In this document: one piece after another, positions 1-55,057 of the stretch
Position numbering within the stretch: the stretch's first letter is position 1
Layout of the letters: each line of letters starts with the position of its first letter
Assembly: GCA_964493305.1 (NCBI GenBank)
Contig: CAZBLW010000001.1
Location: 17,743 to 81,742, forward strand
Source: an uncultured Gammaproteobacteria bacterium
Lineage (GTDB): Bacteria; Patescibacteriota; Patescibacteriia; S139-126
Reading direction: 5' to 3'
Length of the DNA: 64,000 nt
Notes under the pieces: model-generated
Told to the model about the DNA's origin: nothing
Seen by the model: the letters and a program-made list of their open reading frames with translations, nothing else
Databases searched by the model: none
Program-made: the position numbers and the translations under genes

Positions 1-492
1 CTTGATCTCGTCTTCGGTTAAAAATTTACTTTCTTTGATTTTAAATAGTTTCAACAGCATTATATTGAAACTTCTTAACAACCAAACTACTGGAAAAAAT
101 AATATATAAATAAAAAATAAAAACGGGGCGAAATTTTGTGCAATTTTAATATTATTTTTTTGGGCAAACGATTTAGGTACAATTTCACCGAATATTAAAA
201 TTATCAAGGTAACCAAACCAGTAGCCAAACCAATACCAAAGCTTCCAAAAAGATTTACTGCGATATAGGTGGCTAAAGACGCAGCTAATATATTAACAAT
301 ATTATTACCGAGTAAAATTGTTATAAGAGTTTTTTGTGGCCATTTTTTTAATTTATAAATTAAATTGGCGTTTTTCTGTTTTTTTTGTAAAAGCAGACGA
401 ACTTGAGCGTGGTTAAGAGAAAACATGGCAATTTCTGCGGCAGAAAAAAAACCGGACAAAATAACTAAAATTATAAAAATAAAATATATCAT
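1..492 (-). CDS. CNNM/CorC/HlyC-family (DUF21 transmembrane domain) protein, N-terminal part; continues beyond window start
   Basis: Minus-strand frame open to the window edge. The ATG at 490-492 follows an in-frame TAA. Translation MIYFIFIILVILSGFFSAAEIA...SLNHAQVRLLL...ILLGNNIVNILAASLAT matches the DUF21 N-terminal TM pattern (FFSxxExA ... RxxL ... LIGNNxVNIxA). Not in the ORF track, probably because it is partial. Confidence 0.6.
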   Translation of the reverse strand, partial: MIYFIFIILVILSGFFSAAEIAMFSLNHAQVRLLLQKKQKNANLIYKLKKWPQKTLITILLGNNIVNILAASLATYIAVNLFGSFGIGLATGLVTLIILIFGEIVPKSFAQKNNIKIAQNFAPFLFFIYILFFPVVWLLRSFNIMLLKLFKIKESKFLTEDEIK

Positions 493-26594: not shown

Positions 26595-26640
26595 TGGAGC
26601 GGGTGATCCCGCGTCCGCGGGACGACCTTTTCCTTAAAGG
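26595..26640 (-). pseudogene. partial copy of the tRNA-Gly 3' half (anticodon-loop 3' side to CCA) with the T-arm replaced by a GC hairpin CCCGCG-ga-CGCGGG
   Basis: Minus-strand sense CUUUAAGGAAAAGGUCG-UCCCGCGGACGCGGGA-UCACCCGCUCCA compared with the intact tRNA-Gly CCAAGGAAAAGGUCG-CCGGUUCGAAUCCGG-UCACCCGCUCCA. It lies 11 nt downstream of the intact gene. Confidence 0.7.
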
Positions 26641-26728: not shown

Positions 26729-26823
26729 CTACGCTGAAGCTCGGCGGGCAGGCCCGCCAAACTATTACTTATTTTGAAAGCTAATTTATTTTAGCAATTA
26801 AAACAAATTAGTCAATAATATTA

Positions 26824-28886: not shown

Positions 28887-29355
28887 TTTTTACTTTTATA
28901 GAAACAGCTTTAGTTGGTTTGGCTTTTGGCAAGATAACTGTCAAAATGCCATTTTTTAATTCAGCTTTGGTTTCTTCGATTTTTACTTCTACTGGCAAAA
29001 TTATAGAACGAGAAAATGAACCCCAATAACATTCTTGATAAAAATAATCTTCTTGTTTGATACTAGTATCGGCTTCACGTTTTCCCTTGATAGTCAGCAG
29101 ATCGTTTTGTAAAGATATATCAATATCTTCAGGTTTGACACCGGCAATGGTAGATTTGATAATAATATTATCCTTATCTTGAAATACATCGACCGACAAC
29201 TGACCTTCAACGTCTTCATCTAACCATTCTTGGTTATTGTTGGCGGTAGTAGCAGTAGGAGTAAGTTGGGAAAAATCATCTGACTCATTGGTCTTTTCAT
29301 CGACCAGGTCGTTTTGGTCTTTGGCTTTGCTAAATAGATTTTTAATTTTGGCCAT
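28876..29355 (-). CDS. Hsp20/alpha-crystallin-family small heat-shock protein
   Basis: Alpha-crystallin domain pattern: LSVDVFQDKDNIIIKSTIAGVKPEDIDISLQNDLLTIKGKRE...GSFSRSIILPVEV...NGILTVILPK. Confidence 0.85.
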   Translation of the reverse strand: MAKIKNLFSKAKDQNDLVDEKTNESDDFSQLTPTATTANNNQEWLDEDVEGQLSVDVFQDKDNIIIKSTIAGVKPEDIDISLQNDLLTIKGKREADTSIKQEDYFYQECYWGSFSRSIILPVEVKIEETKAELKNGILTVILPKAKPTKAVSIKVKIDD

Positions 29356-29499
29356 AAAATTTATTTAATAAATAAAATGTATATACATTATAATAAATAT
29401 GTAAGTTACAGGCAAACGTTCTAGGCTAGGGTTGATTTATTTTAAATTTTTGTTAGTATAATTAGGTTATAGCTTAGTTTACGGTTGAGAAATGATTAT

Positions 29500-29590
29500 G
29501 GCGCCATCGTCCCCGCCTCGCCTTGACGAGCAAGGCGAGTCGAGGCGGGCCAGCCTCGACTAGACTGCGAGGCTAGGCGGGTAGGAGGTT
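29500..29590 (+). repeat. GC-rich nested-hairpin module beginning with a 12-nt copy of the tRNA-Glu 5' end (GGCGCCATCGTC) and ending in AGGAGG
   Basis: Perfect 9-bp stem CTCGCCTTG/CAAGGCGAG and 7-bp stem AGCCTCG/CGAGGCT, strongly GC-rich in an AT-rich window. The 16-nt stretch ttatGGCGCCATCGTC is identical at 29496-29511 and at 29856-29871, the start of the real tRNA-Glu. Confidence 0.7.
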
Positions 29591-29609
29591 AGATAAAATC
29601 TACTTTTTT

Positions 29610-29855
29610 ATGTATACTATTTACTGGTTAATAAATGAACAAAGAAATAAAACCTACATTGGTTTAAGTAAAAATTTTAAACAAAGAATATTGGAACATA
29701 AAAGTAAAAAAGTTAAAACTACGATTAATTTTGGAAATTTTACTTACCACATATTGGAAAAGATAGATGTTATAACTAAAGCACGGCAAAGAGAAAAATA
29801 TTGGAAATCATCTGCCGGTAGAAGAAAATTGAAAAATTTATATAAAAATATTTAG
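29610..29855 (+). CDS. small GIY-YIG nuclease-superfamily protein (YhbQ/UPF0213-like)
   Basis: 81 aa. N-terminal YTIYWL...KTYIGLSKNFKQRILEHK (GIY-YIG ... R ... H) and C-terminal REKYWKSSAGRRKLKNL. It is a paralog of the 54707-54979 protein. Confidence 0.75.
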   Translation: MYTIYWLINEQRNKTYIGLSKNFKQRILEHKSKKVKTTINFGNFTYHILEKIDVITKARQREKYWKSSAGRRKLKNLYKNI

Positions 29856-29859
29856 TTAT

Positions 29860-29934
29860 GGCGCCATCGTCTAGGGGTTAGGACACCAGGTTTTCATCCT
29901 GGTAACCGGGGTTCGATTCCCCGTGGCGCTACCA
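29860..29934 (+). tRNA. tRNA-Glu (anticodon TTC), CCA encoded
   Basis: GGCGCCA-UC-GUCU-AGGGGUUAGGAC-ACCAGG-UUUUCAU-CCUGGU-AACCGGGG-UUCGAUU-CCCCG-UGGCGCU-A-CCA. Confidence 0.85.
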
Positions 29935-29943
29935 TAAAAAATT

Positions 29944-29970
29944 CATTCATTTTGTGAATGGATTTTTTAT
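29944..29970 (+). terminator. rho-independent terminator after tRNA-Glu
   Basis: CATTCA-tttgt-TGAATG followed by GATTTTTTATTTG. Confidence 0.55.
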
Positions 29971-29978
29971 TTGTAATA

Positions 29979-30121
29979 GCAGGGGAATCGAACGGGCAGG
30001 AATGAGCAACGAAATTTAGTTCGGAAGCGAATGTCGCACAAAGCGAGCGAGCGTAGCTTTGTGCGCTGCCCAGGGCAAGTCCCGCTAATAGCGGGACGCG
30101 GAATTCCCCGTGGCGCTACCA
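29979..30121 (+). repeat. second GC-rich nested-hairpin module ending in a 20-nt copy of the tRNA-Glu 3' end including CCA
   Basis: 10-bp perfect inverted repeat CGCACAAAGC/GCTTTGTGCG (30035-30065) and 7-bp GTCCCGC/GCGGGAC (30079-30097). 30102-30121 (ATTCCCCGTGGCGCTACCA) matches the tRNA-Glu 3' end. The 24-nt motif AGGGGAATCGAAC(C)GGGCAGGAATG is repeated at 29981-30004 and 30176-30198. Confidence 0.7.
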
Positions 30122-30273
30122 AGAGAAAAGGATTTAATTTTGAATTATGTCCTTTTTTCTTTGTCAGATTTTAGAGGGGAATCGAACCGGCAGGAATGCC
30201 CGCAGGCTGGCTTTTGTAAATTTTTTTAATAAAAAACTGCTGGCATTTGTGTCAGCAGTATAAAAGATTATAG

Positions 30274-30507
30274 TTATAAAATAATATAAAGTGTGGAAAT
30301 AATAAGAAAAAATCCGACGATTTCCATCCAGATGGAATTTTCTATTTTTTTGATCGGCCCAAACCAGCCATAAAAAAATGAAAACAAACCGATTAGCAAA
30401 CCAATATAACTTGAAATATTTATTATATTCACTGGTATCTCCTGTAAAATAATTGTTAAGGAAATTGATTGATACAAAATCTTAGTAAGATTTACATAAC
30501 TTGTCAA
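30274..30507 (-). CDS. small membrane protein (2 TM helices)
   Basis: 77 aa, hydrophobic. A 7-bp hairpin plus T-rich tract lies downstream (30238-30265 on the minus strand). Confidence 0.4.
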   Translation of the reverse strand: MTSYVNLTKILYQSISLTIILQEIPVNIINISSYIGLLIGLFSFFYGWFGPIKKIENSIWMEIVGFFLIISTLYIIL

Positions 30508-31439: not shown

Positions 31440-31830
31440 TAGCTAGCGGAAATCGAAATGGTATGAATTATTGACTAATTTTTAACCCTGATATATAAAT
31501 AATACACAAAAAGTTCATTGCATTTTGCCAAAAGCATGGAAAGAGGAAAGTACCACTGACACCATTTCACAGGGAGGGTTTAGCTAGACTGAGACTAAAC
31601 CTGAAACAGGCCAGGCCGGGAAGTTCCCTCTGGAGCTGGATAACTGAAAATTTAGTAGGTTATCACGGGCGTTCCCGTTACAGAACTAACATATTTCTTT
31701 TTGAGTATGTGAAAGCGTTCTGAAAATTTTTTCAGAAAAATTAAGGTGGTACCGCGGATAGCGTTTGGAAAAGCGCTCTTCGTCCTTAAGTCAAATCTTG
31801 GATTTGAGGACAAAGAGCGCTTTTTATTTT
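31440..31830 (+). promoter_or_regulatory. T-box riboswitch leader (stem III, F-box, T-box sequence, terminator)
   Basis: T-box core AAGGTGGTACCGCGG at 31743-31757 against the consensus AGGGUGGNACCGCG. F-box CCGTTA at 31675-31680. Stem III TTCTGAAAA/TTTTCAGAA at 31718-31737. A 14-bp terminator stem GCGCTCTTCGTCCT/AGGACAAAGAGCGC plus T-run at 31773-31830 overlaps the antiterminator 3' side. Confidence 0.7.
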
Positions 31831-54610: not shown

Positions 54611-54700
54611 TGGCGGAGGCGGAAGGATTCGAACCTTCGATACCCGTTAAGGTATACCGCATTTCGAGTGCGGCCCATTCAACCACTCTGGCACGCCTCC
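54611..54700 (-). tRNA. tRNA-Ser (anticodon CGA), class II, CCA encoded
   Basis: GGAGGCG-UG-CCAG-AGUGGUUGAAUGG-...-CCGCA-CUCGAAA-UGCGG-UAUACCUUAACGGGUAUC-GAAGG-UUCGAAU-CCUUC-CGCCUCC-G-CCA. Confidence 0.9.
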
Positions 54701-54706
54701 TTAGTA

Positions 54707-54979
54707 CTAACTTTTTTTAATGATATCTTTATATTGTAATCGTAACAACCGGTTACCTTCTGTGGTTTTTAAATATTTTTCTCTTCTTAAAGCATCACTT
54801 TTTAATAAATAAGCTTCATAACCAATTATTTTAAATGGTCGATAGTTTTTAGTAGATTTTACCTGACCAGATTGGTGTTGCTTTAATCTAATTTTTAAGT
54901 CAGTACATGAACCTTTATAAATATCTTTGTTTGATAATAATAAAAAATAGACGTAGTGCATAGATATTATTAAAATCAT
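54707..54979 (-). CDS. small GIY-YIG nuclease-superfamily protein (YhbQ/UPF0213-like), paralog of 29610-29855
   Basis: 90 aa with YVYFLLLSNKDIYKGSCTDLKIRLKQHQ (GIY-YIG..R..H) and REKYLKTTEGNRLLRLQ. Lies 6 nt upstream of tRNA-Ser on the same strand. Confidence 0.75.
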   Translation of the reverse strand: MILIISMHYVYFLLLSNKDIYKGSCTDLKIRLKQHQSGQVKSTKNYRPFKIIGYEAYLLKSDALRREKYLKTTEGNRLLRLQYKDIIKKS

Positions 54980-54981
54980 TT

Positions 54982-55057
54982 CGTCACGTCATGCGACGTG
55001 ACGCCCCGTCGAATGATGGGGCGAGTGCGGCGCCTTCAACCACTCAGCCACCTCTCC
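54982..55057 (-). repeat. GC-rich hairpin module plus degenerate 36-nt copy of the tRNA-Ser 5' half
   Basis: 9-bp perfect hairpin CGTCACGTC-atgc-GACGTGACG (54982-55003) and CGCCCC/GGGGCG (55002-55023). 55022-55057 matches tRNA-Ser positions 1-36 (acceptor, D-arm, anticodon 5' side) at 30/36 identities. Confidence 0.7.

Follow-up and report, generated by a model that had tools for sequence, protein, structure and literature searches.

Small GIY-YIG nuclease cassettes with hairpin-bearing tRNA fragments at tRNA genes of Patescibacteria

The DNA analysed here, referred to below as the window, is a stretch of 64,000 nucleotides from a member of the Patescibacteria (contig CAZBLW010000001.1), and positions 29496-30211 hold what is basically a simple tRNA-Glu gene that has been invaded on both sides (Table 1). 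On the upstream side, nucleotides 1-12 of the tRNA are followed by a hairpin module (module 1), by nucleotides 13-22, by an open reading frame (ORF) for an 81-residue GIY-YIG protein and then by the complete tRNA. Downstream of the tRNA come terminator A, a second structured module (module 2), a tRNA 3' end with CCA, terminator B, a truncated second start of module 2 and the terminator of a convergent gene. All of the sequence features listed in an initial annotation of this DNA could be verified: the 16-nt repeat of the tRNA 5' end (TTATGGCGCCATCGTC) was recovered by a repeat finder, as were the 24-nt motif and the tRNA 3'-end repeat given below, the GIY-YIG ORF and the intact tRNA are called by Pfam and by ARAGORN and Rfam, respectively, and a 24-nt motif is duplicated (29981-30004 and 30175-30198, 23 of 24 positions identical; two matches in the window versus none in 100 shuffles). 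Perfect hairpins are present at the locus (CTCGCCTTG/CAAGGCGAG, AGCCTCG/CGAGGCT, CGCACAAAGC/GCTTTGTGCG and GTCCCGC/GCGGGAC), and the GC content of the two modules rises to 0.73 and 0.68 compared with 0.35 for the window. The second copy of the tRNA 3' end, CCA included, is also real, with an exact length of 19 nt (ATTCCCCGTGGCGCTACCA; 29916-29934 and 30103-30121; two window matches against none in 100 shuffles) instead of the 20 nt first described. The earlier picture of one inserted block had to be abandoned in favour of at least two independent elements, a 5' GIY-YIG cassette and an ORF-less 3' module present in one full and one truncated copy. These elements are best explained as homing-like cassettes without an intron, whose spread would rely on recombination between homologous tRNA sequences.

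The 5' insertion amounts to 360 nt and leaves nucleotides 1-12 of the tRNA at their native position, behind a promoter-like block that was missed by a consensus scan because its spacer is 19 nt long. This block (TTGATTT..TAGTATAATTAGGTTAT) is near-invariant in alignment A3, which covers six loci, and presumably acts as a promoter; it would now drive the 5' fragment, the ORF and the tRNA. The nuclease gene lies between two direct copies of its putative target, one intact and one disabled, the latter being truncated at nucleotide 22 and split by module 1 between nucleotides 12 and 13. The disabled copy occupies the native position downstream of the promoter, so that nuclease gene and tRNA probably share one transcript. 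Module 1 itself has a predicted minimum free energy of -50.2 kcal/mol (z = -3.8). Behind it, the D-loop remnant TAGGAGGTTAG corresponds to TAGGGGTTAG of the intact tRNA (29872-29881) with one extra base, and homologous remnants are found at three related loci (TAGGGGTTTGG in L001, TAGTGGTTA in L002 and TAGTGGTTTGG in L161). The AGGAGG within the remnant was considered as a Shine-Dalgarno sequence and rejected, being 21 nt upstream of the ATG and homologous to the tRNA D loop. The minus strand of module 1 matches the aspS RNA with 29 bits, below the gathering score of 42.5, and this was taken as a coincidence produced by the GC-rich hairpins.

Relatives of the locus were located via the neighbouring Hsp20 gene (75-91% identical) and share the order Hsp20-DUF3006-VanW-tRNA-Gly-tRNA-Leu. 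That the orthologous tRNA-Glu gene might exist elsewhere as an empty site, as the initial annotation had envisaged, is the case in L150-L153 (Hsp20 91% identical) and L159 (83%), where only the promoter block, tRNA-Glu and a terminator are present; neither module 1 nor the GIY-YIG gene is found at these empty sites, and the tRNA-Glu of the window is identical in sequence to theirs (alignment A3). L001 (91%) carries the full 5' cassette, L156 and L160 (77%) retain a decayed fragment and a hairpin footprint with no ORF, and L154 (75%) has only the terminator, module 2 and the 3' fragment, while L155, whose Hsp20 protein is identical to that of L154, contains terminator A and a single, hybrid copy of the 24-nt motif. 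As with homing genes, the same site is therefore represented by occupied alleles (window, L001), empty alleles (L150, L151, L159) and footprints (L156, L160), which amounts to an insertion polymorphism. The tRNA 5' end is 147 nt from the Hsp20 start in the empty genomes and the 5' fragment is at 145 nt in the window; this matching distance identifies the fragment as the native 5' end and means that the intact tRNA has been moved 360 nt downstream.

On the 3' side, module 2 (fold energy -57.1 kcal/mol) contains no ORF and opens with GGGGAATCGAAC, the start of the 24-nt motif, whose exact reverse complement is found in the T arm of the tRNA, GTTCGATTCCCC (inverted repeats I17/I21). Homologues of module 2 stand behind tRNA-Glu in L154 and L146, and the module is absent from L150, L151 and L159; among the three sequences, 12 of 36 consensus pairs stay paired through two-sided changes, and G-U pairs are present on the sense strand. 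The counterpart of the 3' fragment in L154 precedes the terminator that follows the tRNA in L150, and the displaced 3' piece is thus the native one. The 3' element is built on the same plan as the 5' cassette and consists of a new tRNA 3' end, a terminator and module 2, with the old 3' end moved downstream; it appears to have been inserted twice, the truncated module-2 copy being apparently the relic of an earlier insertion. Module-2-like elements starting with (G)GGGAATCGAAC are also seen after tRNA-Glu in distant lineages (L146, 2042-2180; L134/L143), and the L146 tRNA has a different T loop (GTCCGACTCCCC), which argues that the motif travels with the element and is not copied locally. Downstream of tRNA-Lys(UUU) in L163 (1530-1750) there is an 'exploded' 3' copy that resembles module 2 of the window, with a structured T-loop insertion of ~60 nt and an extra hairpin that separates the T stem from the acceptor strand. 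The idea that module 2 is a transfer-messenger RNA (tmRNA) or part of a two-piece tmRNA, suggested by its GGGGAATCGAAC start and by the tRNA-like 3' end with CCA, was rejected, as there is no ARAGORN call, the Rfam tmRNA_permuted model scores 14.3 bits against a gathering threshold of 47, and no G3:U70 pair is present.

The 3' element also provides the clearest indication of exchange between genomes. The flanking DNA of the window and these relatives is 72-76% identical (~72% for L155 on the Hsp20 side), and within it L155 matches the window at 145 of 145 nt across the tRNA, terminator A (100% identical) and the motif; past this tract, identity is ~99% over ~150 nt and then drops to ~80% by +250 nt. 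The window corresponds to an L155-like allele with 194 nt added between the two 24-nt repeats, and the conspecific L154 differs within the very tract in which L155 equals the window. This co-conversion-like gradient looks, from the alignments, like a recent conversion tract anchored at the tRNA. L154 and L155, identical in their Hsp20 protein, carry different alleles downstream of tRNA-Glu, and this difference looks like a within-species polymorphism at the locus.

The cassette design recurs at tRNA-Glu, tRNA-Ser and tRNA-Lys genes in many Patescibacteria contigs, and the wider search recovered the architecture of fragment, hairpin, GIY-YIG ORF and intact tRNA in independent NCBI, JGI, ENA and Logan assemblies. 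Starting from the proteins, identity look-ups of seven distinct GIY-YIG proteins led in all seven cases to a gene that adjoins a tRNA with a hairpin-bearing fragment (L001, L002, L004, L161, L162, L163 and L168). Starting from the DNA, a metagenome scan with the anticodon-loop hairpin pattern yielded 14 low-GC loci, 12 with an adjacent GIY-YIG ORF and two (L128, L140) that are ORF-less footprints; a scan of genome contigs with CATCGTCCCCGCCTCG gave at least 120 loci, and the 120 listed were chance matches in GC-rich genomes, none of them resembling the Candidate Phyla Radiation (CPR). Two arrangements are found, a 5' type, [tRNA 1..s]-hairpin(s)-[s+1..s+k]-ORF-[intact tRNA], and a mirror type, [intact tRNA]-ORF-[s-k..s]-hairpin(s)-[s+1..76], with the ORFs within 0-10 nt of the tRNA. 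In the mirror type the ATG of the nuclease overlaps or abuts the tRNA 3' end (CCATG in L004, 2990-3010; 1 nt spacing in L162, 1195-1205), so that tRNA 3' processing would release a leaderless or nearly leaderless mRNA. Together with the empty sites, this recurrence supports the initial suggestion of a small GIY-YIG cassette that inserts at tRNA genes; the accompanying suggestion of an imported replacement tRNA does not stand, for part of the tRNA is duplicated and no whole gene is brought in. The similar cassettes at other tRNA genes suggest a common parasite of tRNA genes.

Three of the seven tRNA genes in the window are affected. The second cassette, at tRNA-Ser(CGA), has the same 5'-type layout (Table 1), and its fragment differs from the adjoining intact tRNA at ~8 of 35 nt with compensated D-stem changes (CCA/TGG versus GCT/GGC); in L004, the acceptor of the fragment (GCCGCCA/TGGCGGT) is self-complementary and differs from the one in the resident tRNA. 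Both fragments lie next to ORFs and derive from other, functional tRNAs. The third case is an ORF-less 3' fragment 13 nt after tRNA-Gly(GCC), in which a GC hairpin replaces the T arm; L150, L154, L156 and L159 all lack this fragment. Just upstream of tRNA-Gly, another GC hairpin (GGCGGGCCTGCCCGCC) is conserved in three of four aligned relatives, L159 being the exception, and probably serves as the VanW terminator. For the four remaining tRNAs of the window, the search for tRNA fragments gave only coincidences within coding sequence. Tandem or nested units occur in L141, L134, L002 and on the 3' side of the window locus and fit repeated invasion of a restored tRNA, and the ORF in L134 is truncated, which, with the ORF-less footprints, fits the usual cycle of invasion, decay and loss. 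The T-box leader at 31528-31790 on the plus strand (Rfam RF00230, 110 bits) is ordinary and has no relation to the cassettes.

Table 1. Coordinates of the tRNA-linked elements in the window.
Feature	Position	Strand	Support or remark
Promoter-like block TTGATT, 19 nt, TATAAT	29432..29462	+	present in every syntenic relative
Displaced native tRNA-Glu 5' end: TTAT leader and tRNA nt 1-12 (GGCGCCATCGTC)	29496..29511	+	16 nt repeated exactly at 29856-29871
Module 1, GC-rich hairpin insertion (CCCGCCTCG...CGAGGCGGG family) between tRNA nt 12 and 13	29512..29581	+	perfect hairpins
D-loop remnant TAGGAGGTTAG, tRNA nt 13-22 and one extra base	29582..29592	+	includes AGGAGG
GIY-YIG nuclease gene, 81 aa, predicted catalytic domain only	29610..29855	+	Pfam PF01541, E=3e-12
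Intact tRNA-Glu(UUC), 360 nt off native position	29860..29934	+	ARAGORN; Rfam 62.7 bits
Terminator A, AT-rich hairpin and T run, part of the 3' insertion unit	29934..29972	+	inverted repeat I6, 16-nt arms, 94% complementary
Module 2, structured, no ORF, opens with GGGGAATCGAAC	29981..30102	+	fold -57.1 kcal/mol
Displaced tRNA-Glu 3' end: T-loop 3' part, T-stem 3' strand, acceptor 3' strand, CCA	30103..30121	+	
Terminator B	30118..30164	+	inverted repeat I3; matches AGAGAAAAGGATTTAATTTTGTATTAAGTCC in L154 and the terminator of L159, each directly after the tRNA
Truncated second module-2 start: 24-nt motif and CCCGCAGGCTGGC	30175..30211	+	23/24 identical to 29981-30004
Second cassette, tRNA-Ser(CGA)	54611-55057	-	
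Ser cassette, 5' fragment, tRNA nt 1-35	55022-55057	-	
Ser cassette, hairpins GCCCCA-TCATTCGA-CGGGGC and GTCACG-TCGCATGA-CGTGAC, then GAAATGA	54983-55022 (hairpins)	-	
Ser cassette, 84-aa GIY-YIG ORF	54707-54961	-	PF01541
Ser cassette, intact tRNA-Ser(CGA)	54611-54700	-	
ORF-less 3' fragment of tRNA-Gly(GCC): AAGGAAAAGGTCG, hairpin TCCCGCGGACGCGGGA, TCACCCGCTCCA; with the separate GC hairpin GGCGGGCCTGCCCGCC upstream of the tRNA	26595-26640 and 26740-26760 (both features; strand of the fragment)	-	

Each of three GIY-YIG subfamilies comes with its own hairpin type, placed at its own site in the disabled copy. The P0001 family, to which the Glu-linked protein of the window belongs, is associated in five of five loci with a long palindrome (CCCGCCTCG...CGAGGCGGG) in the D stem, between nucleotides 12 and 13 in the 5' type (the window, L001, L002 with two copies, and L161) or between 22 and 23 in the mirror-type L004; the outer arms of module 1 are common to all five, and a compensatory change from G-C to A-T separates the window from L001. 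The YhbQ-like family has, between nucleotides 35 and 36, a TCRCCC-loop-GGGYGA hairpin together with a second hairpin. The P0129 family, which includes the Ser-linked protein, has in four of four loci a hairpin pair, ..TC[ATTC]GA.. and ..TC[GAAT]GA.., in the D loop of tRNA-Lys or the anticodon or T loop of tRNA-Ser; the stems of this pair covary, and its conserved tetraloops and closing pairs are mutual reverse complements. Over nine sequences, 99.1% of cells in the hairpin stems are paired versus 89.8% in shuffles, and five of 12 pairs show double changes, a level reached by none of 500 shuffles, which points to selection on the hairpins for pairing. The hairpin pairs are two-fold symmetric on both strands, as would fit recognition as DNA by a dimer; selection at the RNA level may also act on the pairing. 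Within the window the motifs occur only at tRNA loci, which disposes of the concern that the modules might be an ordinary dispersed repeat of the REP kind.

Both ORFs in the window, the Glu-linked and the Ser-linked one, match PF01541 with 47 bits against a cut-off of 22.6. Y5, Y16, G18, R26 and E62 are invariant and H30 nearly so in alignments of 19 and 26 sequences that span the three subfamilies. An AlphaFold2 model of the Glu-linked protein (mean predicted local distance difference test score, pLDDT, 94.9) shows the GIY-YIG fold of a three-stranded sheet flanked by helices, and Foldseek places it closest to the catalytic domain of I-TevI (1ln0/1mk0, probability 1.00, template-modelling score 0.60-0.64), followed by UPF0213 proteins, Slx1 and the N-terminal domain of UvrC. 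From the invariant catalytic residues and the I-TevI-like fold of the model, the nuclease looks active. The match to an NCBIfam model for group I intron endonucleases covers no more than the N-terminal 86 of the 215 model positions, and its score falls short of the cut-off; a phmmer search of the PDB gave only a spurious match to a repeat protein. More than 200 homologues of the Ser-linked protein were found in Patescibacteria, and scans of IMG/VR with both window nucleases and with a 39-sequence profile found no relatives. Several public gene calls in these families run through the hairpins and tRNA fragments (P0006, P0007, P0166 and many P0129-family entries of 100-133 residues), which gives false N- or C-terminal extensions; the 132-residue P0007, for example, aligns to the translation of window positions 29496-29846.

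We consider it fairly likely that the tRNA-Glu gene has become home to small selfish elements for which the tRNA sequence is both landing site and homology arm. The nuclease would cut or nick an unoccupied tRNA gene near the site, s, that is marked by the hairpins in the disabled copy, and a cut near s in the naive gene would stimulate recombination. Repair, either by gene conversion or by a single crossover with the unit of disabled partial tRNA and ORF, would then copy the cassette over, the conserved tRNA sequence on both sides serving as portable homology. The product, [1..s]-hairpin-[s+1..s+k]-ORF-[1..76], has exactly the architecture that is observed and would retain a full tRNA copy, so that an essential single-copy tRNA persists with no need to splice out an intron. 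Within the disabled copy, site s would be interrupted by the hairpins; renewed invasion of the restored tRNA would generate tandem and nested units. As they are subfamily-specific, two-fold symmetric and covarying, the hairpins are probably bound by the nuclease as well.

Several observations weigh against this scheme. The restored tRNA is identical to the naive target, and simple homing thus predicts self-cleavage. Disruption of the site does not call for conserved, paired and covarying hairpins, and a further hairpin function is accordingly probable. The 81-residue protein is a catalytic domain over its whole length with no DNA-binding domain, which leaves site specificity unexplained. The co-conversion gradient is clearest for the ORF-less 3' element and not for the ORF cassette. 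Between the window and L001 the GIY-YIG protein is 83% identical and Hsp20 91%, the cassettes being no closer than their flanks, and this pair looks vertically inherited when judged by these identities; divergent genomes yielded no near-identical ORF cassette. Precise deletion, and not an ancestral state, could account for the empty sites. Finally, the estimate of prevalence rests on ~25 loci.

As an alternative, the elements might be guided by their hairpins. The minimal GIY-YIG protein would act as a structure-specific nuclease, in the manner of Slx1 or of the HUH transposases of REP/RAYT and IS200/IS605, which recognise hairpins, and would bind the hairpins of its own subfamily in cruciform or single-stranded DNA. 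Such hairpin units, whether they carry an ORF or not, would then enter exposed loops of tRNA genes, and the duplications would simply be the survivors in an essential gene. The nuclease lacks a DNA-binding domain, and the combination of conserved tetraloops and closing pairs (TC[ATTC]GA/TC[GAAT]GA) with covarying stems is the pattern of hairpins recognised by a protein. One and the same hairpin pair is found in the D, anticodon and T loops of different tRNAs with no common flanking sequence, and ORF-less hairpin insertions exist at tRNA-Gly of the window, as module 2, and in L128 and L140. Stand-alone prokaryotic GIY-YIG proteins have also been placed with the structure-specific Slx1 in a phylogenomic analysis (PMC1564403). 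What speaks against this proposal is that the hairpins always lie within a duplicated tRNA fragment beside an intact copy, which recombination through tRNA homology explains directly and plain transposition does not, that the motifs are not dispersed elsewhere in the window, and that the nearest structural neighbour is I-TevI, with Slx1 lower in the list. We know of no GIY-YIG transposase, and overall regard guidance by hairpins as rather unlikely. A bolder form of the same thought is a new kind of mobile system, made up of the 80-90-residue proteins and their subfamily-specific double hairpins, in which a minimal structure-specific nuclease moves its own hairpin units, ORF-bearing or not, by cruciform or single-stranded DNA recognition into the tRNA loops of Patescibacteria, with the partial tRNA duplication as a built-in repair that replaces splicing; this, too, seems rather unlikely to us, if a little less so than the hairpin-guided element just described.

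The covariation could alternatively reflect a function for the host, with fragments and hairpin modules forming structured RNA of the tRNA operon (as mRNA stabilisers, processing signals or tRNA-like decoys) and with a domesticated GIY-YIG protein expressed from the tRNA promoter. Selection on pairing, the location of the hairpins in tRNA loops where the cloverleaf can tolerate them, the 0-10 nt spacing of ORF and tRNA with the mirror-type start codons (L004, L162) that processing would free, and the sense-strand G-U pairs of module 2 would all be in keeping with this. However, close relatives, and even alleles of one species, differ in whether they carry an element, some loci hold a decayed footprint (L156, L160) or a truncated ORF (L134), and identical elements occur in divergent genomes; the two-fold symmetry of the hairpin pairs on both strands suggests recognition as DNA. 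Most fragments (nucleotides 1-22 or 1-41) are also too incomplete for tRNA mimicry; the modules themselves, which show covariation, may still be a tRNA-like structured RNA of the kind put forward in the initial annotation. A host function accordingly seems improbable to us. Partial tRNA duplications around inserted DNA are a hallmark of integrative elements that target tRNA genes, yet scars left by an integrase (att duplications), and likewise an assembly artefact of the repeated tRNA sequence, are very improbable here, given units of only 187-360 nt, duplicated 5' as well as 3' ends, the same architecture in independent assemblies and no integrase near the locus or in the ORFs and gene calls inspected at the related cassettes, which also speaks against the decayed integrative element considered earlier.

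Comparison with known systems places the homing-like cassettes near, and apart from, several of them. The SegB gene of T4-like phages (PMC2330249) is, like the gene here, a GIY-YIG gene outside introns and among tRNA genes, and a spread by double-strand break repair with co-conversion of flanks, as in the Seg system, may apply to the cassettes as well; SegB drives segmental amplification in phage T6 (PMC13096335), which the tandem units described above resemble. Seg proteins are, however, larger and carry DNA-binding domains, as do I-TevI and I-BmoI for their long recognition sites, whereas the proteins here have 80-90 residues and only a catalytic domain; Seg genes are intergenic, their target is neither split nor duplicated and they have no hairpin modules, and their host is a phage instead of a CPR chromosome. 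Group I introns in tRNAs of Patescibacteria (PMC13011429) encode HNH, LAGLIDADG and PD-(D/E)XK endonucleases, with no mention of GIY-YIG or tRNA-Glu. They are similar in being inserted in tRNA loops without harm to an essential RNA gene, and the predicted fold of the nuclease is nearest to the catalytic domain of I-TevI, but introns are spliced, whereas harmlessness here would come from partial tRNA duplication with no ribozyme: searches with Rfam models found no group I ribozyme within 29300-30400 at E<=10, nor anywhere in the window at the gathering threshold. A mobile GIY-YIG ORF in the mitochondrial atp6 gene of Allomyces, with a replacement gene terminus and a displaced pseudo-terminus, was reportedly described by Paquin et al. 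in 1994 and 2000. That endonuclease ORF is likewise reported to enter an essential gene with a copy of the displaced part, the old part being left as a fragment. The mitochondrial double-hairpin elements (DHEs) and GC clusters cited in PMC2800124 are similar in having GC-rich double hairpins in an AT-rich genome and in behaving as mobile insertions. Both the atp6 ORF and the DHEs are organellar and sit in protein-coding or rRNA genes instead of bacterial tRNA genes, and DHEs are dispersed through the genome, in contrast to hairpins confined to disabled tRNA copies and specific to a nuclease subfamily.

Integrative elements that target tRNA genes share with the cassettes a displaced partial tRNA 3' end beside a restored intact gene (attL/attR); the cassettes differ in their 0.2-0.4 kb units, in the duplication of 5' parts too and in the hairpins of the displaced copy, and no tyrosine or serine recombinase lies within the repeat-bounded units (360 and 187 nt, with a GIY-YIG ORF or no ORF). 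REP/RAYT and IS200/IS605 elements also join a small nuclease gene to family-specific GC-rich hairpins with conserved loops and covarying stems; they use an HUH (Y1) transposase and dispersed hairpins, in contrast to a GIY-YIG protein and hairpins found only in tRNA-derived fragments. The set of domain-only nuclease, subfamily-specific hairpins and partial tRNA duplication is found in none of these closest known systems. A literature search found no description of such GIY-YIG/tRNA/hairpin cassettes, which are thus apparently undescribed so far as a parasite of tRNA genes.

If the elements spread as proposed, selfish DNA would have a third means of persisting within an essential RNA gene, beside self-splicing and a location next to the gene: the gene is split, and a replacement for the displaced part is carried along. 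Because three of the seven tRNA genes in the window are affected and more than 200 related nucleases are found in Patescibacteria, such elements may contribute greatly, though they go unannotated, to variation at tRNA loci and to horizontal exchange in these reduced genomes. They also mislead gene callers, whose ORFs then run on through the hairpins. As candidates for site- or structure-specific nucleases, the proteins belong to the smallest, and their candidate DNA partners are defined, which makes the role of stand-alone bacterial GIY-YIG proteins directly testable.

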